DNA of 64,000 nt from Nitrosopumilus sp. Lineage in GTDB: Archaea > Thermoproteota > Nitrososphaeria > Nitrososphaerales > Nitrosopumilaceae. Location: NCBI GenBank assembly GCA_965224195.1, contig OZ245040.1, positions 192,001 through 256,000 on the forward strand, written 5' to 3'. A program made the position numbers and the translations under genes. Under the pieces are notes generated by a model that was not told where the DNA came from, searched no databases, and saw only the letters and a program-made list of their open reading frames with translations. Positions 1,439-40,845 of the stretch are shown one piece after another (within the stretch, counting starts at the first letter, position 1; every line of letters starts with the position of its first letter).

Positions 1439-1514
1439 ATAGCCATACCTGGTGAACAATATTTGAGGGTTGGTGTAGGCGCAGATTTAATTAAACCAGA
1501 TGATATTTTTTGAT

Positions 1515-2960
1515 ATGAAAAAGGAGTTATCCTTTGCATTAAACTATGCATTAAACAAAGGATTTCAGATTCATCCAGATGCTTTTAAAATATTAGAAAA
1601 TGTAGATGTTAAAAAATTAGAGAAAATAATTAAAGAAATTGTAAGAGAGAAGACAAAGCAAAAATTATTTCAGATTAGCCAGGATGATTTAGAAACTTAT
1701 CTTGGAATTAAAGAAGATTTATCATTACAGAGTGAAATCAAAATAATATCAGACCCTACTAGTAAGATTACATCTGGAGAGGGGGTAAAAGGATACAATG
1801 CTTTGTTTTCTAGCCGTTTTAACAAGCTTAAACGAATCATCTCAGATAGACCAGAATCAAAACTACTCAAATCTGCGGCATCTCTAAAAAATACAAAAAT
1901 CGATGATGACCAGTATGTATGCGGACTAGTTACAATTAGAAATTCTGAGAGAAACATCACAAAGATAGTTCTGGAGGATCCTTCAGGCTCATTTGAGGGT
2001 ATAATTTTTGATGAGGAATTGCAAAAAACCGCAGAAACTTTGCTAATAGATCAATTCGTCATGGCAAGAATAGGTTCTGCTAAAAACTCAGGATATATCA
2101 TCAAAGATCTTATTTTACCAGACATTCTAGAGCAGGCAAAAAACAAGTCAGAAAGTGACACATATGCAGTCTTTCTATCTGACTTGCATATCGGAAGCAA
2201 ATACTTCATGGAAGAAGAATTTTTACAATTTGTATCATGGATTTCCAGTCCAGATCTTGTTGCAAGAAAAATTCGATTTATCCTAATTGGAGGTGATATA
2301 GTGGATGGTGTTGGAATTTATCCTAATCAAAATAAAGAATTGGTTTGTCAGACAATCCAAGAGCAATTAAAAAAAGCAGAAAATTTGATTGATAAGATTC
2401 CCAAAAATGTAAAAATCATCATTATGCCAGGAAACCACGATCCTGGTAGAAGAGCATTGCCACAACCTGCCATCCCTAAAAAATACAATTCAGGTCTATG
2501 GGAGAGGGAAAATGTAATGATGGTTGGTAATCCGGCAGTGATATCATTAAATGGAGTTATCGTCTCAATGTTTCATGGACAAAGTATAGATGATATTGTA
2601 AAGACCACACCTGGTCTTAGTTATGACAGACCTACCAATGTAATGAAACATCTGCTCAAAGCAAGACATCTTAGTCCAATTTATGGTAGTCAGACACCAA
2701 TTGCGCCTGAAATGGAGGATTTGATGGTAATTCAAGACATTCCAGATATTTTTCATGTAGGCCATGTTCACCGAGCCCAATTAGACATGTACAAAGGAAT
2801 TTTGTTGATAAATTCTGGTTCTTGGCAAAAACAAACCCCTTTTCAGGCCAGTGTAGGAATGATCCCAAATCCAGGTATTGCCATAATTGTTAATCTAAAA
2901 ACCTTCCAAGTCTTCCATGAAAATTATAGTTCTAATTTAGATAATGTCTTGCAAACTTAG
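1515..2960 (+). CDS. polB: DNA polymerase D small (exonuclease) subunit DP1
   Basis: OB fold plus calcineurin-like motifs SDLHIGS, GDIVDG, PGNHD, FHG, HLSP, GHVH. Confidence 0.97.
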   Translation: MKKELSFALNYALNKGFQIHPDAFKILENVDVKKLEKIIKEIVREKTKQKLFQISQDDLETYLGIKEDLSLQSEIKIISDPTSKITSGEGVKGYNALFSSRFNKLKRIISDRPESKLLKSAASLKNTKIDDDQYVCGLVTIRNSERNITKIVLEDPSGSFEGIIFDEELQKTAETLLIDQFVMARIGSAKNSGYIIKDLILPDILEQAKNKSESDTYAVFLSDLHIGSKYFMEEEFLQFVSWISSPDLVARKIRFILIGGDIVDGVGIYPNQNKELVCQTIQEQLKKAENLIDKIPKNVKIIIMPGNHDPGRRALPQPAIPKKYNSGLWERENVMMVGNPAVISLNGVIVSMFHGQSIDDIVKTTPGLSYDRPTNVMKHLLKARHLSPIYGSQTPIAPEMEDLMVIQDIPDIFHVGHVHRAQLDMYKGILLINSGSWQKQTPFQASVGMIPNPGIAIIVNLKTFQVFHENYSSNLDNVLQT

Positions 2961-4145
2961 ATCATCTTTGAATGATTTTTTTATCATTTCAGATGATATT
3001 GTGAGTTTGTATTTTTTTGTCCTTCCATGAATGCCTTGATGAATTAGTCTTCCAGAAATAATTCCAGACAATTCAATTTCACTTAGCATTTGTGTAATTC
3101 TTCTTTGAGTAAGTTCGTCTTTTCCTAATGTCTTACAAAGATTTTTGTAAGAAGAATAAATTTCACCAGTTGAAGAGCCATTAGCCTTCATTATGGCTAT
3201 AATTACCAATTTTTCATGAAGTGGGTATGATTTGAGGGAGGCTTCTTCTTTGTTTTCTTCAATTTTTAAAGAGGCTTCCCTGACATGCTCAATTGTGACT
3301 TTGTCAGATTGTTGTCTTTCTGCAAGTTCGCCTGATACACGAAGTAGATCAATGGCCCTTCTAGCATCACCATGTTCCCCTCCTGCAAGGGCGGCACAGA
3401 GGTTTAAGGCTGGTTCTTCTATGGAATTTTCAATAAAAGATTCGTTGATTCTCTCTTCAAGAATTTTTTTAATTTGTTCAACATTATAATTTGTAAAGAC
3501 AATCTCTTCTTCTCCTAGACTACTAATCACTCTAGGATCTAGTTTTTCTTTGAATGTTAAGTCATTTGAAATTCCTACCATAGTTAGAGAACCTTGTTTT
3601 AATTGCTCATTTGCCCTTGTTAATTGATATAGAATATCCTTGCCTGTTTTCGCTACTAGTTGGGCAAGATAATCAATCTCATCAATTACAAAAATTGCAT
3701 TAAGTTTTCCCTCATCAATTTTGTTTAGTAGCCTTTTGAAGACTTCGCTAATAGCAAGCCCATTTGAGGGTAATTCGTCTTGTTCTAGGCCTAATTGCCT
3801 GCCTAGACTGACTAATAATCCGTATAATGTAGTCTCATTTTTTGAATTAGAATATACAAGTTTGATTGGAAAGTTTGATTTCTCAACTCTTTCTTGAATT
3901 TTAGATAATACTTTTTTTACAACTAATGTTTTACCAGTTCCAGGTTTTCCATAAACTAAAAGATTTGATGGTCTGGATTGTTTTAGAATTGGTAATAGAG
4001 ATTGAGTAACTTGTTCTTGTTCATTTTTTCTATGTAAGATGGTATTTGGAATATATGTAAAATGAAGTATATCACGGTTTTTAATAATTGATTTTCCAGA
4101 TTCAGCTGCATCAAGTAAATCATCTATCGGATCAGACATACTCAC
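2937..4145 (-). CDS. cdc6: Orc1/Cdc6 replication initiator
   Basis: Walker A GKPGTGKT, Walker B VIDEID, GDARRAIDLLR, C-terminal winged helix. Confidence 0.98.
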   Translation of the reverse strand: MSMSDPIDDLLDAAESGKSIIKNRDILHFTYIPNTILHRKNEQEQVTQSLLPILKQSRPSNLLVYGKPGTGKTLVVKKVLSKIQERVEKSNFPIKLVYSNSKNETTLYGLLVSLGRQLGLEQDELPSNGLAISEVFKRLLNKIDEGKLNAIFVIDEIDYLAQLVAKTGKDILYQLTRANEQLKQGSLTMVGISNDLTFKEKLDPRVISSLGEEEIVFTNYNVEQIKKILEERINESFIENSIEEPALNLCAALAGGEHGDARRAIDLLRVSGELAERQQSDKVTIEHVREASLKIEENKEEASLKSYPLHEKLVIIAIMKANGSSTGEIYSSYKNLCKTLGKDELTQRRITQMLSEIELSGIISGRLIHQGIHGRTKKYKLTISSEMIKKSFKDDLSLQDII

Positions 4146-4284
4146 ACACCTTCATTTCTTCTCAACACTAATACAACTATATCTGAATTAAGAGAGTATA
4201 GAATAATAATAGTAGTTTAGTTTGTAATTAATTATTTTTAGTTAGTTTTAGATTTTCTATTAAAAAAAAATTAAAAAAAACATA

Positions 4285-4306
4285 GAGTGGAAATATCGGT
4301 GTGTGG
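4285..4306 (+). promoter_or_regulatory. ORB-like element, inverted relative to the other two
   Basis: GAGTGGAAATAtcggtgtgtgg shares the GAGTGGAAATA core with the two full ORBs. Confidence 0.7.
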
Positions 4307-4380
4307 GTTTAATCCTAAATTAGGAGTGAGTTAACAAAATTGTTAATTTAGTGTTAAGAAATGTCTGAAAAAGCCCATTT

Positions 4381-4405
4381 TAACCCCATTATTTCCACTC
4401 CAGGC
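4381..4405 (-). promoter_or_regulatory. Origin recognition box (ORB)
   Basis: Reverse complement GCCTGGAGTGGAAATAATGGGGTTA resembles the ORB consensus with G-string; identical copy at 4443. Confidence 0.9.
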
Positions 4406-4442
4406 GTTAAGATGGATGTTAACACTGTGAATATCTTCAATC

Positions 4443-4467
4443 TAACCCCATTATTTCCACTCCAGGC
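4443..4467 (-). promoter_or_regulatory. Origin recognition box (ORB)
   Basis: Exact 25-bp direct repeat of 4381-4405, 62 bp downstream. Confidence 0.9.
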
Positions 4468-4626
4468 ATGAAATTATCTTAATTTAGGGGACTAATTATG
4501 AATTAATTATTAATAACAAAATATACTCTAGGCGTGGCTCAGGCAGTCAATGTTAACAAACCACTTAGTTAACAAATATTCTGAGATCATTTCAACTGTT
4601 AACATCTGATCAGTTAGATCTCAAAG

Positions 4627-5013
4627 ATGGCTAAAAAACGTATTCGAATTGATATGGAAGATTCTGATGGTGCACGATATGACATCAAATTAGAAGGTAA
4701 TGTAACCAAAGATAAAATCCTCAAAATTTTCGAAATGATGGACTTGATGAATATTGAAGAAGAACAAGAACCAACAAACATGAATTCAGTAGGTTCTAAA
4801 ATTTCAAATATTGTTGACAAGTTTTTCCCAATGGGCAAATTCACTTCAACAAATATTCTTGAAAAGTATGAAGATGAATATAATGAACCTGTAAAACTTA
4901 GTATTATTTCCACATACTTGTCACGATTTGTTACAAAAGGTAGGGTAAATAGAACAAGAACTGGCAGAGAATGGACATATCAAACCATTAAAATACCTCA
5001 AAAACAACAATAA
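4627..5013 (+). CDS. Origin-adjacent protein with C-terminal winged helix (BlaI/CopY-like)
   Basis: LSIISTYLSRFVTKGRVNRTRTGREWTY resembles a recognition helix plus wing. Confidence 0.7.
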   Translation: MAKKRIRIDMEDSDGARYDIKLEGNVTKDKILKIFEMMDLMNIEEEQEPTNMNSVGSKISNIVDKFFPMGKFTSTNILEKYEDEYNEPVKLSIISTYLSRFVTKGRVNRTRTGREWTYQTIKIPQKQQ

Positions 5014-5017
5014 TCAA

Positions 5018-5179
5018 TTAAGAAATCGTTACTTTTCTAACCAATAATCTATCTTTTCCGAGAATTACTTTAACATATTCACCTTTTTGGATATCCATAT
5101 ACTTTCTAAACTGTTTTGGGATTGATATTGTACCTGCAGAAGTGATTTTCACTAAAACTTCATTATCATTTACTGACAT
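5018..5179 (-). CDS. AbrB/MazE/SpoVT-family DNA-binding protein (53 aa, not in ORF track)
   Basis: Manual translation MSVNDNEVLVKITSAGTISIPKQFRKYMDIQKGEYVKVILGKDRLLVRKVTIS; G-x-I-x-IPK-x-R...GE signature. Confidence 0.85.
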   Translation of the reverse strand: MSVNDNEVLVKITSAGTISIPKQFRKYMDIQKGEYVKVILGKDRLLVRKVTIS

Positions 5180-5300
5180 ATTGGTATTATAATTTAATAA
5201 TATATATAATTTAATAAATTATTTAAATACATTTTCATTATAAAATATGCCTAATTATCTTAAAATTCAATAAATTTACCACTAAAAAAATCTAAATTTC

Positions 5301-5906
5301 TTATTGTACTAAGAGATTTTTGTCTGTTTGTTCCACTTTTGCAATTCCTTTTTCAGTAATTGAGTAAGTATATGGTTTAGATTCAGTATTTCTTTGAACA
5401 TATCCTTCTTCAAACAACTTTTTCATCAGGCGTGAAGTATGCTCTCTACTTTTCTTTAATGTGATTTGTATGTCACGTGATGTCATAGATTTGCTTGTGA
5501 TTAGATGCAACACATAATCAACTGGATTTGTAGGCGTAATATTTTGAATAATAGGTGTAGAATCTACCTTTTCAGGTACAACTTCAGTCTTAGTGACAAC
5601 CTCAATTGGTTTTTCTTGGACTTCACTCTTTACCAATTTTTCTAAAAATTGTTTTAATTCTAGGTTAGGATCCTCTACTTTTTGTTCAATTCCTTGAATT
5701 TCTATAGCATCTAGGCGTATTTTCATATCAATTAACTGTCTTTCATAATATTCTAGACGTTCAGCTTGTGAAGCATCAAATACATCATTTCTAGTTTTTA
5801 CTAATGGACGTACTTTGAAATAGGCATACAATCCAACAATACCAATAATGAATGCTAAAATCACACTTAAAATCACTTCAGGTTCAGGAATTTCTACTAA
5901 CATCAC
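5301..5906 (-). CDS. Membrane-anchored coiled-coil protein with C-terminal MarR-type winged helix
   Basis: N-terminal TM (VILSVILAFIIGIVGLYAYF), coiled coil, TSRDIQ...SREHTSRLMKKLFEEGYVQR...YSITEKG. Confidence 0.8.
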   Translation of the reverse strand: MMLVEIPEPEVILSVILAFIIGIVGLYAYFKVRPLVKTRNDVFDASQAERLEYYERQLIDMKIRLDAIEIQGIEQKVEDPNLELKQFLEKLVKSEVQEKPIEVVTKTEVVPEKVDSTPIIQNITPTNPVDYVLHLITSKSMTSRDIQITLKKSREHTSRLMKKLFEEGYVQRNTESKPYTYSITEKGIAKVEQTDKNLLVQ

Positions 5907-6151
5907 AACTTCTATGCCTGCAACGTGATTTATCGTGATTGAACAATTTTATTTCACACTTTAGATTAACAATCTCACACACATTATCACATACAATTTA
6001 GATTGACATTAACTTAGGTAATCACATACATCACATGTTACATGCCTGACGAATGAGCCTGTCAATCACATTAATCACCTCTTCTTCCCTTTCAGGAAAA
6101 ATATCACTCTCATTAATCACACTAATTTGTTCTGAAAGCTTTGATATCACA
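5860..6151. repeat. Cluster of ATCAC(A)/(T)GTGAT short motifs
   Basis: 13 ATCAC copies counted on both strands in about 290 bp. Confidence 0.75.
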
Positions 6152-6393
6152 TCTATATCATCAGGTAAAAGTATGCCTAGACCACGAAAAAGTATGATTG
6201 AGTAGAATAATCCAATTAATTTGTCTCTAGATTGCCCAACTTGCCTGTAATACGCACCTTTACTAATAGAAAAATTGGATTCAAGAAGATCTTTCTGATT
6301 TAAAATAATTTCAACTTGTCGCTCTGTAAACAGTGATTTTTTGATGATTTTACGGATAATATTGTTAAAATTAGATTTTTCTAACTTATCCAT
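6031..6393 (-). CDS. Putative helix-turn-helix protein
   Basis: FTERQVEI...SISKGAYYRQVGQSR resembles a TFX/sigma-region-4-type HTH; start set at MDKL. Confidence 0.6.
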   Translation of the reverse strand: MDKLEKSNFNNIIRKIIKKSLFTERQVEIILNQKDLLESNFSISKGAYYRQVGQSRDKLIGLFYSIILFRGLGILLPDDIDVISKLSEQISVINESDIFPEREEEVINVIDRLIRQACNM

Positions 6394-6457
6394 AGCTATA
6401 CAAATCTGTATGCAGCATTCCAATTAAACTTTAAAGAGACATGTACAAACCCATTCT

Positions 6458-7210
6458 ATGGCTGAAGACAAAGTTGAATCATTTCTAAAGTCAGAATTAA
6501 AAAAGAAAAATATATTACTTTTCGTATTAATTGATTCAGAAGTATCCAATTTAGAGGCATCAAGCAAACTTGCCAAAGATGTTGAGAAGATTGGAGCCTC
6601 GGCAATTCTAGTTGGAGGCTCATCAGCAACTAATCAAATTGAGATGGCCCAAGTTGTAAAAGGAATCAAAAAAGGTCTAGAAATTCCAATCATTCTATTT
6701 CCAGGTAATGTTACAGGTGTCGTACCTGACGCAGATGCCATATTATTTAGTTCATTAATGAATTCTGAAAATCCTTATTTCATCACCCAGGCACAGGCTT
6801 TAGGTGCCCCAAATGTCTTAAAATTTGGATTAGAACCACTCCCAACTGCATATTTGGTCATAGGAGATGGAACATCAGCATGGTTTGTTGGTTCAGCAAG
6901 AGGAATTCCATTTGAAAAACCAAAAATTGCTGCAGCATACTCACTAGCTGCTCAATTTCTAGGTATGAGATTTGTTTACTTGGAGGCAGGATCTGGTGCA
7001 AAAACCCATGTTACTCCTGAAATGGTAAAAACTGTCAGACATGCATTTAATGGATTTTTGATAGTAGGTGGAGGCATCAAAGATGTAAAAACTGCTGAAA
7101 GTTTGGCTAAAGCCGGAGCAGATGCCTTGGTTATTGGAACCTTCCTTGAACAAGGTGGAAGTATCACAAAACTCGAAGAAATAGCAAAAGCAATTCAAAG
7201 AAGCAAGTAG
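6458..7210 (+). CDS. Geranylgeranylglyceryl phosphate synthase
   Basis: ILVGGS, ILFPGN, YLEAGSGA, VGGGI motifs of the GGGPS/PcrB family. Confidence 0.95.
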   Translation: MAEDKVESFLKSELKKKNILLFVLIDSEVSNLEASSKLAKDVEKIGASAILVGGSSATNQIEMAQVVKGIKKGLEIPIILFPGNVTGVVPDADAILFSSLMNSENPYFITQAQALGAPNVLKFGLEPLPTAYLVIGDGTSAWFVGSARGIPFEKPKIAAAYSLAAQFLGMRFVYLEAGSGAKTHVTPEMVKTVRHAFNGFLIVGGGIKDVKTAESLAKAGADALVIGTFLEQGGSITKLEEIAKAIQRSK

Positions 7211-7222
7211 TAAAGGACTATT

Positions 7223-10200
7223 ATGTCTGAAAACAATGCAATTTCTCGAATTAGTGATATCAAAATGCCAGAACACTATCTGGATTACTATACCCGTCTT
7301 TCAGATGAGACATATTCAATATTTGAACATGCAGCTTCTGCAAAATCTACTCTAGTTGATTCTTCAGGTATTATTGAACCAAAAATCGCTTTTGATCTAG
7401 CAGATAGAGTTGCAAAAATACATGAAATTGATATTGCTGATCCATTAAGAGAAATTTTAAAAATTAATGGGAAAGAACTTTCAGCATTAATTTTAGCAAA
7501 AGAGATTGCTCAAGGCAAATACTGTCTTCCAGATGCTACATTAGAAGACAAATTAGATCTTGCAGTACGTGTAGGACTAGCTATTATTACTGAAGGAGTT
7601 ACTATTGCACCATTACAAGGAATTAGTGAAGTAAAAATTAAGAAAAATAAAGATGGCACTGAATATCTCTCTGTTTCAATTGCAGGACCAATGCGTTCAG
7701 CAGGCGGAACCGAGTCTGCTGTAACTTTGTTAATTGCAGACCATGTCAGAAAAATTGCAGGTCTATCAAAATTTCAAGCTAATTCATTTGATGATGAAAC
7801 AGGTAGATTTGTTGAAGAATTACGAATCTATGAAAGAGAAGCAAGCAGCTTTCAATTTCATATTTTAGATGCAGACATTGAACATGTAATTTCTAATCTT
7901 CCTGTAGAATTAGCAGGTGTTGATACTGATCCGTATGAGGTGGTTAACCATAAAGGCATGACTAGAATCAAGACTGACCGTGTTAGAGGTGGAGCTTTAC
8001 GAGTCTTAAATGATGGATTGATCGGAAGATCAAAAAAACTTCTCAAGAGAATTGAACTGTATAATCTAGATGGGTGGGAATGGCTCAATGATCTCAAAGG
8101 ATCTGTTCAAACTGATGACAATCAAGAAGACGCAGCAGCCAAAAGAATGCATGAAGTAATTACTGGCAGATCTGTCTTATCCATGCCTAACAAATTAGGA
8201 GGATTTCGTTTAAGGTATGGTAGAGCATGTAATACTGGTTTTGCAGCAGTAGGAATTCATCCAGTTATTGCGGAAATTCTAGATCATACGATTGCAGTAG
8301 GAACTCAAATCAAAATAGATATCCCTGGAAAAGGAGCAACTGTGGCATTTGTTGATTCAATCGATACTCCAACTGTCCGTCTCAATAATGGTAATGTTGT
8401 AAAAATTCGTGATGTAAAACATGGACTAGAAATTAAAAATAATATTGAAAAAATTCTACATCTTGGAGATATTTTAATTTCATTTGGGGATTTTTTAGAA
8501 AATAATGCTCAACTGGTACCTTCAGCTTATGTTGAAGAATTCTGGATAGAAGAATTAAAACAAAATATTGAAAAATATGATCCAAATGATCAGGTTTTAA
8601 ATCAATTTTTAAATAAAATTCCTACAATAGATGAAGCATTAAAAATTTCACTTGATTTTAAAATTCCACTTCATCCACATTATTTGTATTTCTGGGATAA
8701 AATTTCATCAGAAGATCTTCTCAAACTTTTAGAACCAAAAAAAGTTAATGAAATGTCAATTGAATATTCTATTCAAGTTAAGAAAATTCTTGAAAACTTG
8801 GGAACTCCTCATAAAGTTGAAAATGAAACATTGATCTTAGAACATCAGGAAGCAAAAATTTTCTTTAATTTACTTTTTAGAGAAAAACCAACAATTAGTG
8901 ATTTATCTGTTCCAAAAATCTTGTCAGAATCATCAGGTATTCAAATTAAGAATAAATTTTCAACAAGTATTGGAGTTAGAATTGGAAGACCTGAAAAAGC
9001 AGCTCCAAGACAAATGAAACCTCCTACACATACATTATTTCCAATTAGTGACAAGGGTGGTCCTACTAGAGATCTACTAAAAGCATCCAGAACTGAGCAC
9101 TTTTTTGCTAATATCATTAACCGTAATTGTACTCAATGTAATCAACCTTCTATTGGAATTAGATGTTCTATTTGTGGTACTAAAACATCGATAACTTACA
9201 GATGTTCCAATTGCAGAGATATTCTTAATGAGCCATTTTGCGAAAAATGTAAACGAAAAGCTCCAGCTCATTCTTATCAAGTATTTCCATTAAAATCTAG
9301 ATTGTTTTTAGCTCAGGAAAAAATGGGAATTCGTGCAAAAGAACCATTCAAAGGAGTCAAGGAATTAATTAATCAAGATAAAATTGCTGAACCATTAGAA
9401 AAGGGACTTGTAAGACAAAGTTTTGGTTTAACCACTTTCAAAGACGGAACAGTAAGATGCGATGCAACAAATTCTCCAATTACTCAATTCAAACCATCTT
9501 GGATTGGAACGTCCATTGAGAAATTAAAAGAACTTGGATATTCTCATGATATTGATGGAAAACCTCTTGAATCTATTGATCAAATTATTGAAATTCGAAT
9601 GCAGGATGTCATTATACCAAATGAAATCGGAAATTATCTAGTTAATGCTTGTAAATACATTGATGTTCTTTTAAAAAAATTCTACGGAAAATCTTCATTT
9701 TATAATGTTAAAAATAATGAGGAATTAATTGGGCATCTAATAATTGGTTTAGCTCCTCACACATCAGTAGGAATAGTAGGACGTATCATAGGATATACTG
9801 AAACTCATGTTTGTTTTGGAACTCCAAATTGGCATTCTGCAAAAAGAAGAGATGCTGATGGAGATGCTGATTCTATAATGTTACTAATGGATAGTCTTCT
9901 TAATTTTTCAAGACAATTTCTTTCAGATAGAATTGGCGGATTAATGGATGCGCCGTTACTTATTCAACCACATGTTTTACCACATGAATCTCAACCACAA
10001 GCACATAATCTTGAAGTTACAAAAATACTTCCTTTAGAATTTTTTGAATCTACATTCGAACAAGTAAAAGCATCAGATGTATCCTCAATTGAGATTATCA
10101 AATCACGACTTGATACTGAAAGACAATTCTATGATTATCACTTTACACATCCTACTTCATCTCTTACTACATCTAAATCAAGAAGTGCATATTCCACATT

Positions 10201-10600
10201 AGGTTCAATGCTTGACAAATTTGATATGCAAGTTAGAAATGCCGAATTAATCAATGTTGTAAACCCTGCAGAACTTGTTTCAAATGTAATTTCAACTCAT
10301 TTGGTTCCAGATTTGATGGGAAATCTTAGAGCATATGCAAGACAAAGTTTCAGATGCACAGCATGTGGAAAATCATGTCGTCGTATGCCTTTAATCCAAA
10401 CATGTGTTTGTGGGCATAAGCTAATTGCCACAATTACTAGAGGTTCTGTAGAAAAATATCTCAAACTTGCAAAAAGACTTGTTGAGAAATATGATGTTGG
10501 TGAATATCAAAGAGGAAGAATTCACGCCTTATCTGATGAAATTGAATTGGTATTTGGAAAGAGTCAAGGAGATCAATCCTTACTTTCAGACTATTCGTAA
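7223..10600 (+). CDS. polC: DNA polymerase D large subunit DP2
   Basis: AGPMRSAGGT, GGFRLRYGR, RIGRPEK, catalytic KRRDADGDAD, Zn fingers. Confidence 0.98.
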   Translation: MSENNAISRISDIKMPEHYLDYYTRLSDETYSIFEHAASAKSTLVDSSGIIEPKIAFDLADRVAKIHEIDIADPLREILKINGKELSALILAKEIAQGKYCLPDATLEDKLDLAVRVGLAIITEGVTIAPLQGISEVKIKKNKDGTEYLSVSIAGPMRSAGGTESAVTLLIADHVRKIAGLSKFQANSFDDETGRFVEELRIYEREASSFQFHILDADIEHVISNLPVELAGVDTDPYEVVNHKGMTRIKTDRVRGGALRVLNDGLIGRSKKLLKRIELYNLDGWEWLNDLKGSVQTDDNQEDAAAKRMHEVITGRSVLSMPNKLGGFRLRYGRACNTGFAAVGIHPVIAEILDHTIAVGTQIKIDIPGKGATVAFVDSIDTPTVRLNNGNVVKIRDVKHGLEIKNNIEKILHLGDILISFGDFLENNAQLVPSAYVEEFWIEELKQNIEKYDPNDQVLNQFLNKIPTIDEALKISLDFKIPLHPHYLYFWDKISSEDLLKLLEPKKVNEMSIEYSIQVKKILENLGTPHKVENETLILEHQEAKIFFNLLFREKPTISDLSVPKILSESSGIQIKNKFSTSIGVRIGRPEKAAPRQMKPPTHTLFPISDKGGPTRDLLKASRTEHFFANIINRNCTQCNQPSIGIRCSICGTKTSITYRCSNCRDILNEPFCEKCKRKAPAHSYQVFPLKSRLFLAQEKMGIRAKEPFKGVKELINQDKIAEPLEKGLVRQSFGLTTFKDGTVRCDATNSPITQFKPSWIGTSIEKLKELGYSHDIDGKPLESIDQIIEIRMQDVIIPNEIGNYLVNACKYIDVLLKKFYGKSSFYNVKNNEELIGHLIIGLAPHTSVGIVGRIIGYTETHVCFGTPNWHSAKRRDADGDADSIMLLMDSLLNFSRQFLSDRIGGLMDAPLLIQPHVLPHESQPQAHNLEVTKILPLEFFESTFEQVKASDVSSIEIIKSRLDTERQFYDYHFTHPTSSLTTSKSRSAYSTLGSMLDKFDMQVRNAELINVVNPAELVSNVISTHLVPDLMGNLRAYARQSFRCTACGKSCRRMPLIQTCVCGHKLIATITRGSVEKYLKLAKRLVEKYDVGEYQRGRIHALSDEIELVFGKSQGDQSLLSDYS

Positions 10601-10602
10601 AT

Positions 10603-11925
10603 CTATCTTAATTTGACGTATTCGTAAGCACCCAATTTGTTATCAAAGCAGAATTTAACTTTTTGAAAGTCTTTTCTGAATGCTTTAACTTTTGAAAGTA
10701 TTTTCTGTGGATCTTTTTTGTCAATTACAACTTGTTTTAGATAGGAAGCAATTTCTTGCATTTCATTTTTCTTCATTCCTAATCGTGTAATTTCAGAAAC
10801 TCCTAATCTTATTCCACCAGGATGGAAATAGTTTCTTCCTGCTTTAATATCACCAGGGATTAATTGTCTATTTACAATAATATTTGCTTTTTCTAAATTA
10901 GCTTCTATCTTTCCACCATCAGAATAATCTAAAACGTTAACTACAATCTGATGTGATTCTGTAAAGCCTCTACTTTCACCTAATACTTTGAATCCCATAT
11001 CACTCAAGGCTTCTGCAAATATTTTAGCATTTTTGATTACTTCAACTGCATAATCTTTTCCATACTCTAAAGCTTCTGCAAATGCAACTGCTTTTCCGGC
11101 CATATGATGAATATGATGACTACTAGTAAGACCAGGAAAAGTTGCTTTTTTGATACCTTCTTCGTGTTCTTTTGAGCCTAAGACAAGTCCTCCTTGAGGA
11201 CCAAACAAAGTCTTATGAGTACTCATAGTCATTGTATCTGCTCCTTCGCGTAAAGGATCTTGGAATCTCCCACCAGCAATTAATCCTGCAACATGAGCAG
11301 CATCATAATTGATATGCATATCATAACTCTTTAGAAAATCTGATAATTCTTTGACAGGATGAGGAAACAAGAATAATGAACCACCAAACATTGCCATCTT
11401 TGGAAGACGATTTTGTTTTTTGAGATCTTTAATTTTTTGTTTAGTTTTATCTACATCAATTGTCATTTCTTCAGCATTAAACGGATAAAATTCAATTTCT
11501 AATCCATGAACCAATCCAGCAGTTCCAGAATGTTCCTTCTTACCATGAGAGATATGTCCACCTGCTGGAATTGATGGTGCTAACATAATGTCTCCAGGAT
11601 TTGTAAATGCAGAATAAACTGCTAAATTTGCAACGACTCCTGAAATTGGTCTAACGTCAGCAAATTTTGCTTTGTATAATTTTTTAGCTAACTTCATGCA
11701 TTCAAACTCTACCTCATCAATGTAGGTACAACCAGCATAGACTCTTTCTCCAGGCCATCCTTCTGCGTATCTATTTCCAAAATCAGAAATTATTGCCTCC
11801 CTAACCGCTGGGCTAGGGATATTTTCACTTGCAATTAATGGAATTGAGTTTTCAAACCATTTGTGATGTTCTTTTAATTTTGTAAAAATTTTATCATAAG
11901 ATTCTTTATTCTGGGATTTTGTCAT
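10603..11925 (-). CDS. glyA: Serine hydroxymethyltransferase
   Basis: LIASEN, RYAEG, GGHISH, PLP lysine STHKTLFGPQGG. Confidence 0.97.
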   Translation of the reverse strand: MTKSQNKESYDKIFTKLKEHHKWFENSIPLIASENIPSPAVREAIISDFGNRYAEGWPGERVYAGCTYIDEVEFECMKLAKKLYKAKFADVRPISGVVANLAVYSAFTNPGDIMLAPSIPAGGHISHGKKEHSGTAGLVHGLEIEFYPFNAEEMTIDVDKTKQKIKDLKKQNRLPKMAMFGGSLFLFPHPVKELSDFLKSYDMHINYDAAHVAGLIAGGRFQDPLREGADTMTMSTHKTLFGPQGGLVLGSKEHEEGIKKATFPGLTSSHHIHHMAGKAVAFAEALEYGKDYAVEVIKNAKIFAEALSDMGFKVLGESRGFTESHQIVVNVLDYSDGGKIEANLEKANIIVNRQLIPGDIKAGRNYFHPGGIRLGVSEITRLGMKKNEMQEIASYLKQVVIDKKDPQKILSKVKAFRKDFQKVKFCFDNKLGAYEYVKLR

Positions 11926-12019
11926 ATTTTGCATCTTGATTTTCCCAATTTAAAAACACCGATGTGATTTCAAAATTTTCGATCTTGATCTGGAAGATAT
12001 AAAAGGGGAATCGGGAGTT

Positions 12020-39746: not shown

Positions 39747-40064
39747 TTGAAATTTTGCCCCAAATGTGAGGTTAAATTAAAAAACAGTGGATCAGGCCTT
39801 CAATGTTCTAAATGTGGTTATGTTGATGGAGAAAAAGCTAAATCAACAAAAAAAATTACTACTGAAGAAGAACCAGATTTCTCATTGCTTGCTTTTGAAG
39901 GAGATGAAGGCGAAGAATCTAATCCAACTGTCAAAATAGACTGTGAAAAATGTGGACATGATGAAGCAGTCGGCTGGATGTTTCAAACTAGAAGTGCAGA
40001 TGAATCTACAACAAGATTTTATCGTTGTCAGAAATGCAAATACACCTGGCGTGATTACACATAA
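39747..40064 (+). CDS. tfs: Transcription factor S
   Basis: FCPKC..CSKC; CEKC..QTRSADE..FYRCQKC. Confidence 0.93.
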   Translation: MKFCPKCEVKLKNSGSGLQCSKCGYVDGEKAKSTKKITTEEEPDFSLLAFEGDEGEESNPTVKIDCEKCGHDEAVGWMFQTRSADESTTRFYRCQKCKYTWRDYT

Positions 40065-40098
40065 GGTTTAACTGGAACATAAAGAGAAGAAAATTGAT

Positions 40099-40845
40099 TT
40101 GACTTTTAGTGCAAAAACAAGCGGATCTGATGATCTAAAAGCTATCATTTCTGCAATATCTACACTTGTTGAAGAAGCAACTTTTGTTGCAACAGCAGAA
40201 GGAATTACTTTTAGAGGAATGGATCCATCACATGTAGCTCTAATAGATATTTCATGGCCTAATTCTGCATTTGAAAAATATGAATGCGATAGTGATATTA
40301 AATTTGGTGTGAGAATTGATGAATTCTCAAAACTCATCAAAAGAGCAGACAAAAAAGATAGCATTGAGATAAGCATCTCTGAACAAAACATGTTGCTTGT
40401 AACAGTTGGAAAAAATAAAAAATACAAAATGCGATTAATTGAAAGTTCTGCAACTGATACTCCATTGCCAAAAATTCCTTATGACTCAAAAATTATTTTA
40501 ACTTCTTCAAAGTTTGATAAAATTCTTGGCGATGTACAAGTTGTATCTGATTATCTTACTATACAAACAGTTGATTCAAAAGGAGATTTTTCTGGAAAAG
40601 GTGATTCTGGAGAAGTTGTAATTGAATTAGACAAAGATGATAAAGAAATTGAAGAAATTTCTTCAAAAGCAGACAGTGTTGGTACATACAGCCTTGAATA
40701 TCTAAATCCTGTAGTGAAAGCAGTAGGTTCCAATGCAGGCTCAATTACATGTGAGTTTTCAAGCGTAAAACCTCTTAGAATTGAATTCAAAGTAGCAAAT
40801 ATCGGTAGAATCCACTTTTACTTGGCTCCACGCGTAGAAAGTTAA
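40099..40845 (+). CDS. pcn: PCNA sliding clamp
   Basis: MDPSHVAL, YSLEYL, FYLAPR. Confidence 0.97.
   Translation: MTFSAKTSGSDDLKAIISAISTLVEEATFVATAEGITFRGMDPSHVALIDISWPNSAFEKYECDSDIKFGVRIDEFSKLIKRADKKDSIEISISEQNMLLVTVGKNKKYKMRLIESSATDTPLPKIPYDSKIILTSSKFDKILGDVQVVSDYLTIQTVDSKGDFSGKGDSGEVVIELDKDDKEIEEISSKADSVGTYSLEYLNPVVKAVGSNAGSITCEFSSVKPLRIEFKVANIGRIHFYLAPRVES

Follow-up and report, generated by a model that had tools for sequence, protein, structure and literature searches.

Archaeal replication origins have been described as origin recognition box (ORB) repeats read by Orc1/Cdc6 or WhiP, with the timing of firing poorly understood (PMC4010727, PMC7617429), and a single origin has been mapped in Nitrosopumilus maritimus (PMC4010727); here and below, statements on published systems refer to the available sections of the papers cited. 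The origins of Haloarcula hispanica possess, besides ORBs, extra cis control elements that are origin-specific in one genus (PMC3936714). Haloarchaea also carry oapABC, a highly conserved trio that diverges, across the origin, from an origin-associated orc gene and of which OapA is a small GTPase for vesicle formation (PMC10927574, PMC7002104). Among bacteria, the transcription factor CtrA of Caulobacter additionally acts to silence the origin (PMC2877005), and for chromosome segregation in archaea the SegAB system of Sulfolobus has been described (PMC7617429). In this study, a 64,000-bp stretch of the 2.07-Mb genome (34% GC) of a Nitrosopumilus sp. (contig OZ245040.1, positions 192,001 to 256,000; G000:C1:192001-256000 in our numbering), hereafter referred to as the window, was analysed to follow up a first-pass annotation, made from the sequence, which had proposed a cassette of four DNA-binding proteins (P1 to P4) flanking the origin. 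As judged by comparative sequence analysis, P1, P3, and P4 are an ancient three-gene module that has kept its place next to the origin in two or more classes of the phylum. Each of the three proteins has a private, conserved, putative cis element at the 5′ end of its own gene; that of P1, an array of GT(T/G)AA repeats, lies inside the origin. The feature is real and uncharacterised, the interpretation given in the annotation is partly supported, and it is possible that P1 is a new origin-control factor in archaea.

The 481-bp spacer between orc1/cdc6 and P1 was observed to be a canonical archaeal origin, with ORB repeats in opposite orientation around an AT-rich stretch (Table 1). The ORB consensus is a TTCCA.TGGA-like dyad plus a G/C string, and the same ORB elements were present in 40+ related loci. 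With both an adjacent orc1/cdc6 and inverted ORBs around an AT-rich stretch, the locus is assigned from its sequence to the Orc1/Cdc6-ORB type of replication origins. The AT skew and coding-strand bias roughly agreed with an origin at 196 kb; the GC skew of the genome displayed no clear origin or terminus.

Conservation was followed in 20 loci of the same order, centred on matches to P3 (10 belonging to the same genus and 10 to other families of that order, selected for having usable contigs), and in 25 hand-picked loci from families of other classes. P1 adjoined P3 in all 20 same-order loci. Cdc6 was found in 16 of them, the contig of the other four breaking off within a few hundred bases after P1, and P4 was detected in 15 with the query from the window. 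A profile of P1 matched 199 of 301 genomes of the phylum, including 155 of the 257 outside the family of the window, all of which belong to another class of the same phylum. Among the 25 other-class loci, cdc6 was divergent and next to P1 in 16 and 3.3 kb away in 1, and P3 was arranged tail-to-tail with P1 in 11. AmoA was not found in any of the 4 other-class genomes tested, which were 92–100% complete, indicating that the module is older than ammonia oxidation and not tied to it.

Interleaved with the ORBs is a second class of repeat. GTTAA starts at 4330, 4342, 4353, 4406, 4418, 4552, 4568, and 4598, TTAAC starts at 4380, and GTGAA starts at 4427. Five of the 13 GTTAAC copies in the window fall within these 274 bp, and the top 300-bp interval of the genome for this motif is located here (5 copies, against a mean of 0.044). 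When the sequences of the genus were aligned, the GTTAA sites stood out as invariant islands, which the two most diverged members retain amid surroundings that differ. Loci from other families displayed TGTTAA or TGTGAA at equivalent places: a tandem of 2–3 sites between ORB1 and ORB2, one helical turn apart, further sites after ORB2, and a tandem just before the start of P1. The other-class loci followed the same ORB-plus-tandem plan, with TGTGAA pairs 8–9 bp apart. Tandem GT(T/G)AA pairs numbered 84 in the 22.3 kb upstream of P1 versus 53 in 788 kb elsewhere, a 56-fold enrichment, and the rate was higher upstream in 37 of the 45 loci; the motifs were defined on some of the loci later counted, and the loci are related and were chosen for long contigs. 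A wider GTTAAC regulon in the genome of the window was considered and rejected, few other pairs being found, beside unrelated genes as read. In one clade, GTGAA was located at a fixed 11–12 bases from the ORB C-string, resembling an extended ORB, and such a fixed distance holds only within clades.

Five genomes in which P1 and cdc6 are unlinked were examined for the location of GTGAA repeats and ORBs. In three of them, the ORB-bearing region upstream of cdc6 contained 7–9 GTGAA repeats, where 1.2–2.0 were expected (P from 1e-3 to 6e-6), with P1 lying 18, 22, and 505 kb distant; in two of these three (L037 and L040), the region upstream of P1 itself was without the array. The remaining two genomes had neither ORB clusters nor GTGAA repeats upstream of cdc6, and ORB-like elements adjoined P1 instead. 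Inverted ORB pairs around an AT-rich stretch were seen beside P1 in L053 (genome G232) and L057 (genome G123), with no cdc6 within 10 kb; the main cdc6 of G123 is 92 kb away and has no ORBs upstream of it. The origin may thus have parted from cdc6 in these lineages, but not from P1. That the GTGAA repeats travel with the ORBs in the unlinked genomes argues against their being mere operators of P1. In addition, the motif variant tracked the first residue of the recognition helix of P1, which is T with GTGAA and I, V, L, or A with GTTAA, the other-class locus L038 included.

P1 matched no family of Pfam or NCBIfam above threshold, the nearest scores being 20 bits for Penicillinase_R (cut-off 22.6) and 19 bits for CopY_TcrY (cut-off 122). 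The AlphaFold model, built on a 19-row alignment, had a mean predicted local distance difference test (pLDDT) score of 74.7, with a confident winged helix at residues 55–120, a beta-hairpin plus helix at residues 4–41 of modest confidence, and a disordered linker of variable length. The winged helix-turn-helix (HTH) fold read for P1 in the first-pass annotation was borne out by the model, the sequence matches being below threshold. Matches to the fold were generic winged-helix regulators of MecI/ArsR/Fur types, and a search of PDB sequences with the P1 profile returned hits only at an E of 0.02 or weaker. Membership in the BlaI/MecI/CopY (Penicillinase_R) family was rejected, both because the score is below the cut-off and because the model has the reversed domain order, those proteins having an N-terminal winged helix and a C-terminal dimerisation domain. 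The relatives of P1 numbered 3704, and all named records among them are “hypothetical”. A fused form, seen as a single 356-aa match on a 1.3-kb contig, was set aside as probably a gene-calling artefact. When P1 was co-folded with the cytoplasmic portion of P3, the score was 0.00, which is evidence in neither direction.

Several observations were made around P1. Three GATC sites (4585–4588, 4608–4611, and 4617–4620), within the 45 bases that precede its start codon, were invariant in 11 sequences of the genus, while the neighbouring bases varied. In L034 (10307–11074), a locus of another class, P1 is divergent from PCNA, and the 150-bp spacer carries a GTGAAC-AG-GTGAAT tandem; in L037 (7664–8416), also of another class, PCNA lies two genes from P1, both loci having PCNA in place of cdc6. 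The PCNA genes of both loci scored above the cut-offs for PCNA_N and PCNA_C. PCNA of the window was found by tblastn at 40102–40839, directly after an open reading frame (ORF) that ends in a zinc-ribbon motif and was read as TFS-like (region 39800–40839).

The ORF of P3 spans 5301–5906, and its orthologues start at ATG 5903. Its C-terminal part is a MarR-like winged helix that matched Pfam HTH_27 with 29.1 bits (gathering cut-off 22.2) over residues 130–186, confirming that this ORF carries the winged HTH with which it had been annotated. Within this domain, R153, E154, H155, R158, and K161 are invariant, as is the recognition helix. The N-terminus consists of a hydrophobic segment followed by K/R residues and a conserved helix-like segment, RQLIDMKIRLDxLE; a hydrophobic N-terminus was present in 30 of 34 orthologous P3 ORFs, across classes. 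HAMP and sensor domains were not matched in family scans of P3, and its assignment to the Lrs14 family of regulators was rejected (NF040939, 22.8 bits versus a cut-off of 90). The P3 profile matched 179 of 201 genomes of the class (including one, G421, flagged as unpublished, on which no other result depends) and none of 8 in one family.

The 5′ region of P3 is covered by the TGTGAT (ATCACA) array, which sits 1.4 kb from oriC. On the plus strand, ATCAC occurs at 5860, 5872, 5902, 5986, 6021, 6030, 6065, 6074, 6103, 6116, and 6146, and inverted copies occur at 5925 and 5935, giving 13 copies in the 300 bp at 5851–6150, of which 11 are on one strand. In a coarser scan of the whole genome, the top interval held 12 copies and the runner-up 8, with a mean of 0.65; the second-densest interval (C1:132081) was a coding Gly-Asp repeat. 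The only tandem TGTGAT pair of the genome also lies in this array. Where the array runs through coding sequence, all 6 Val-Ile dipeptides are encoded as GTG-AT, versus 13.3% genome-wide (p ~6e-6, in a post hoc test). At the starts of P3 genes in the related loci, GTGAT/ATCAC was enriched 10-fold and TGTGAT 17-fold, and the rate was higher there in 32 of 34 loci. Since TGTGAT and the recognition helix of P3 stay constant while the motif in the origin switches, the two arrays are unlikely to have the same reader. The first-pass annotation had noticed two short-motif clusters in this region; both were found, each being the densest of its kind in the genome.

All four ORFs of the cassette were located where the annotation had placed them, but P4 was found to start at ATG 6393 and not at TTG 6423. 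P4 gave no sequence match in Pfam, NCBIfam, or PDB, and Foldseek against PDB returned none below an E of 2. Its model (pLDDT 86.7) comprises five helices, with residues 76–120 forming a helical hairpin. Residues 19–79 aligned with the DNA-binding domain of the LuxR-type protein EsrB (VIA-align Z of 6.0, root-mean-square deviation 4.1 over 59 residues), a match within noise for helical models, and the Atlas lead was Sigma70_r4 at 0.81. It is in the putative recognition helix that the conserved residues of P4 are concentrated; as a whole, its HTH label is weakly supported. Directly upstream of the start codon lies a palindrome that was absent from the first-pass annotation. Across loci, this element takes the form ATACA-N4-6-TGTAT, and ATAC-N4-8-GTAT was found in 29 of 35 windows upstream of P4 versus 1.4% of all 130-bp windows. 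Also in the spacer between P4 and GGGPS is a AATTAAACTTTAAAG box (6427–6441), invariant in the genus, which resembles a TATA region that the two divergent genes share or have placed back to back. In two loci (L024 and L029), the P4-GGGPS spacer is ~410 bp and accommodates a further small ORF that has two CxxC pairs and looks like a zinc-ribbon Elf1-like protein.

P2 passed the cut-offs of both AbrB families (Table 1), in agreement with the AbrB fold assigned to it earlier; AbrB-like matches in the genome at an E up to 0.01 numbered 5, including P2, and 2 of them were above the curated cut-off. Linkage to oriC in relatives was the check suggested for the cassette: it holds for P1, P3, and P4 but fails for P2, which was present in 8 of the 20 same-order loci, all in the same genus, and was missing from the two most diverged members of that genus. 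The conserved unit is thus a trio of P1, P3, and P4 without the fourth gene of the proposed cassette, and P2 is, from its distribution, a lineage-specific insert and a presumably recent passenger outside the module.

The gene identities, folds, gene order, and the conservation and uniqueness of the motifs are taken here as established. What we infer from them concerns the pairing of proteins with motifs, autorepression, and any effect on replication. The reading that we prefer, at a probability of roughly 45%, is that P1 is an accessory origin-binding factor with a CtrA-like logic and that P3 and P4 are locally acting, autoregulated DNA binders. P1, which would be prone to dimerise and carry its winged helix on a flexible linker, would bind the GT(T/G)AA repeats and sit beside Orc1/Cdc6 on the origin by way of the helically spaced tandems between ORBs. 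The sites at 4552, 4568, and 4598 cover the presumed TATA/start region of P1 (a promoter read from the sequence), and their occupation would repress P1 itself. On the origin, P1 may modulate firing by blocking the ORB2-ORB3 side or altering its shape, as CtrA, SeqA, or Spo0A does at bacterial origins, and we lean to a negative or timing control as the sign of its effect. P3, putatively anchored in the membrane with its winged helix in the cytoplasm, would bind the 13-site TGTGAT array over its own promoter, and a dimer of P4 would bind the palindrome at the start of the P4 gene. Judging from the motif comparisons, P3 and P4 each appear to have a single target, namely their own 5′ region.

A number of findings weigh against this reading. 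The protein-to-motif assignment comes solely from adjacency and co-occurrence, and a second Orc1/Cdc6 paralogue could read the second motif. P1, P3, and P4 all have motifs on their own promoters, as plain autorepressors do. No tandem pair was present upstream of P1 in 8 of the 45 loci, and Cdc6 was not within 10 kb of P1 in 8 of the 25 other-class loci. The overlap between motif-defining and counted loci, their kinship, and the choice of long contigs mean that the enrichment figures overstate independence. The two loci L032 and L050 break the covariation of helix and motif, which phylogeny also confounds. Three genomes lacking P1 displayed no GTGAA excess upstream of cdc6, a weak control in that these regions were also without clear ORB clusters. 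No GTTAA sites were found upstream of PCNA in the genome of the window, so that a wider replication regulon is not seen there. Finally, oapABC was expected to act in replication and proved otherwise (PMC10927574), a case showing that origin linkage alone can mislead and that position does not give function.

The strongest competing explanation, which we consider unlikely though clearly the best placed of the alternatives, is that P1, P3, and P4 are ordinary autorepressors in an old syntenic block (DP1, cdc6, oriC, the trio, GGGPS, DP2, and serine hydroxymethyltransferase), their motifs being operators, with no role of the proteins in replication or in the handling of the chromosome. It accounts for the overlap of each motif with the 5′ end of its own gene and for the conservation of the entire block and not just of the trio; the absence of other genomic targets in the motif scans fits pure autoregulation, and oapABC provides a precedent for origin linkage without replication function. 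However, approximately 10 and 13 sites are far above the usual operator, each cluster being the densest of its kind in the genome, and GT(T/G)AA sites lie between the ORBs, 100–300 bp from the promoter of P1. It also leaves aside the three unlinked genomes in which the sites stay with the ORB origin when P1 is 18–505 kb away, with the P1 upstream regions of L037 and L040 devoid of the array, and the biased codon use that keeps the TGTGAT array inside coding sequence.

The idea put forward in the first-pass annotation was a tether; in the form considered here, P3, bound to the TGTGAT array, would fix the origin to the membrane as a form of motor-less segregation, with P1 and P4 as helpers and a Noc/RacA- or centromere-like logic. 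That P3 tethers the origin to the membrane is possible from its architecture; as an account of the whole locus, we regard this as improbable. The hydrophobic anchor followed by basic residues across classes and the lack of an outside sensor domain in P3 are consistent with it, and the array is single, unique, large, one-directional, imprinted on coding sequence, and next to the origin; repeats straddling the promoter of their binder resemble a plasmid centromere of the parC/ParR kind. Genes of ParA type are absent from the vicinity of the origin: as the annotation had stated, none is in the window, and the matches of the genome to PF13614 and PF01656 (C1:326243, 355725, 745852, 858214, and 1738771) are all outside and not near it. 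On the other hand, the same facts suit a membrane-held autorepressor or a releasable transcription factor just as well, and the array is located at the P3 gene, so that its closeness to oriC may simply follow from synteny. P3 was moreover unmatched in 22 of the 201 class genomes, the 8 of one family among them, and was not within 10 kb of P1 in 11 of the 25 other-class loci. For the further suggestion that the cassette couples initiation to lipid synthesis, no link was found beyond the divergent promoter common to P4 and GGGPS. A combined form, in which P1 gates firing at oriC and P3 fixes the origin region to the membrane through the TGTGAT array, as an ancient, motor-less origin-handling system of archaea of this phylum with DNA polymerase D (PolD), is in our estimation a little more doubtful still.

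Equally doubtful is that the GT(T/G)AA repeats are origin elements read by a factor other than P1 (the second Orc1/Cdc6, a protein of the chromatin, or Orc1 itself through an outer contact), P1 being an unrelated neighbour, for although a second Orc1/Cdc6 exists in this genome (C1:1112455-1113567, 29% identical to the origin-adjacent copy), as do paralogues in other genomes searched, and although the arrays follow the ORBs rather than P1 and keep the fixed spacing to the ORB C-string in one clade, tandems also occur far from ORBs, right at the start of P1 and, in L034, within the spacer that separates P1 from PCNA, the variant of the motif follows the recognition-helix residue of P1, and the three P1-less genomes, weak as this control is, displayed no GTGAA excess.

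Table 1. Features of the origin region and its flanks, in positions of the window
Feature	Position	Strand	Remarks
Degenerate ORB over the cdc6 start codon	4140–4163	-	Inverted repeat with 4285–4308; conserved in the genus alignment
AT-rich presumed unwinding region	4164–4284	.	A-tract at 4258–4283; between inverted ORBs; GC 0.25 over 4051–4350; putative unwinding role
ORB1 (GAGTGGAAAT...GGTGTGTGGG)	4285–4308	+	Inverted relative to ORB2 and ORB3; nearly invariant in 11 genus sequences
GT(T/G)AA array	4330–4603	.	Interleaved with ORBs, reaching the P1 promoter; ~10 sites
ORB2 (ACCCCATTATTTCCACTCCAGGC)	4383–4405	-	Direct repeat with ORB3; same element in other families and classes
ORB3 (second direct copy of ACCCCATTATTTCCACTCCAGGC)	4445–4467	-	Direct repeat; seen in the genus alignment and other loci
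P1	4627–5013	+	128 aa; N-terminal beta-hairpin/helix, flexible linker, C-terminal winged helix; candidate GT(T/G)AA binder
P2	5018–5179	-	53 aa, AbrB/SpoVT-type; PF04014 33 bits (cut-off 24.7), TIGR01439 37.4 bits (cut-off 28.3)
P3	5301–5903	-	N-terminal membrane anchor (read from the sequence), conserved helix segment, variable linker, C-terminal winged helix
TGTGAT (ATCACA) array	5860–6150	-	Runs over the P3-P4 spacer and into both coding ends (first codons of P3, last 45 codons of P4)
P4	6031–6393	-	120 aa, all-helical; weakly LuxR/sigma-r4-like N-terminal part, C-terminal helical hairpin; start ATG 6393
Palindrome TATACA-AATC-TGTATG	6397–6412	.	Immediately precedes the start codon of P4; lies in the spacer between the divergent P4 and GGGPS
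PolD small subunit DP1	1500–2960	+	ORF; tblastn orthologues adjoin Cdc6 in relatives; name read from sequence and synteny; member of the syntenic block
orc1/cdc6 initiator gene	2937–4145	-	Cdc6_lid and Cdc6_C matches; TIGR02928 362 bits (cut-off 181)
GGGPS	6458–7210	+	Syntenic neighbour; PcrB 174.7 bits; NF003198 above cut-off
PolD large subunit DP2	7223–10600	+	Syntenic neighbour; ORF and orthologues in relatives; name read from the sequence

The gene order across 1500–11934 is DP1(+), orc1/cdc6(-), the 481-bp spacer, P1(+), P2(-), P3(-), P4(-), GGGPS(+), DP2(+), and a serine hydroxymethyltransferase-like gene(-). The position given to the cassette in the annotation, between cdc6/oriC and the GGGPS-DP2 genes, was thus correct, both flanks being confirmed by ORFs, family matches, and orthologues. 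The 3′ ends of DP1 and orc1/cdc6 are convergent and overlap by 24 bases (2937–2960), and relatives in the genus are similar, with overlap or near-abutment. A gene for a SpoIIM-like membrane protein (899–1459; PF01944 23.9 bits, below the cut-off of 26.9) adjoins DP1 in most same-order loci. No Rfam match was obtained for 3800–6800 at an E up to 1.

Away from the window, four direct repeats of the TGTTAACTTT type were observed beside a transposase-like ORF, at a point 12 kb off the antipode of the origin and close to where the coding-strand bias switches (~1.22 Mb); genome-wide, they formed the runner-up to the GTTAAC cluster of the origin. This four-copy TGTTAACTTT cluster (C1:1238428-1238560, locus L058) was considered as a terminus site and rejected: it was not conserved in 5 relatives of the genus, it matches scattered short repeats, and it is strain-specific.

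P1, P3, and P4 are “hypothetical” in every named database record listed, and the sole Pfam family above threshold is the generic winged helix of P3. In the literature covered, no description of the P1, P3, and P4 genes or of a second origin motif was found; the primary origin-mapping paper of N. maritimus and supplementary files lie outside this coverage and may bear on the point. The locus offers a second, deeply conserved class of repeat that ammonia oxidisers and related archaea carry within their origins, together with a candidate reader encoded next door. If P1 is indeed an accessory factor of the origin, three small proteins and as many short motifs would make the control of initiation in archaea directly accessible to testing, and this in a group that is ecologically dominant. 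A tethering of DNA to the membrane by P3, if it occurs, would bear on chromosome segregation in these cells, for which the available sections of a 2024 review of the cell cycle mention no segregation system (PMC7617429). Were the motor-less handling of the origin true, it would show at work an idea of the replicon model, in which initiation and segregation are coupled through attachment to the membrane. If the three are only autorepressors, they would provide clean archaeal pairs of operator and regulator, and a second caution, alongside oapABC, on origin linkage.

Among known systems, CtrA has five sites at the Caulobacter origin, with the motif TTAA-N7-TTAA. The role proposed for P1 would resemble it in that a sequence-specific regulator occupies several short sites in the origin beside initiator boxes and also acts on promoters. 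CtrA differs in that it is a response regulator of bacteria, has a large regulon, and is itself under the control of phosphorylation and proteolysis, whereas P1 is an unrelated archaeal winged helix with no receiver domain and no homology to it, and with one main target locus by motif scans. WhiP/Cdt1 has two winged-helix domains; the P1 model has one. As for oapABC, OapB and OapC are DUF2073 and zinc-ribbon proteins, which do not bind DNA and for which the available sections describe no cognate origin motifs (PMC10927574, PMC7002104); P1–P4, in turn, had no GTPase or DUF2072/2073 matches in family scans.

In plasmid R1, the centromere-binding protein ParR acts on parC, a repeat array over its own promoter. 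P3 is like ParR and SegB as a small DNA-binding protein next to a unique direct-repeat array over a promoter, an arrangement in which one complex would both autoregulate and mark the site. Unlike ParABS and SegAB, P3 has no adjacent motor gene of ParA, ParM, or SegA type and carries a membrane anchor instead, and ParB, SegB, or RHH families were not matched among P1–P4 (Pfam and NCBIfam, E up to 1); the unique repeat array beside the gene of its candidate binder corresponds to these systems in form only, the motor gene and the binder family not being found. The bacterial proteins Noc, RacA, and RocS, which have ParB-like or MerR-like folds, link chromosomal sites to the membrane or the pole, their sites being spread over large regions. 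They share with P3, if it acts as a tether, DNA binding and membrane association near the origin. In Sulfolobus, ArnR/ArnR1 are membrane-bound, with an N-terminal HTH, HAMP plus sensor domains, and two C-terminal membrane helices, and activate pilus and archaellum promoters (PMC6396743). P3 is similarly an archaeal DNA-binding regulator predicted to be held in the membrane, but its architecture is reversed, with one N-terminal anchor, a C-terminal winged helix, and no HAMP or sensor match. For the extra cis elements of the H. hispanica origins, the available sections describe no cognate non-Orc protein (PMC3936714), whereas at this locus a second repeat class and its candidate reader are conserved across classes.

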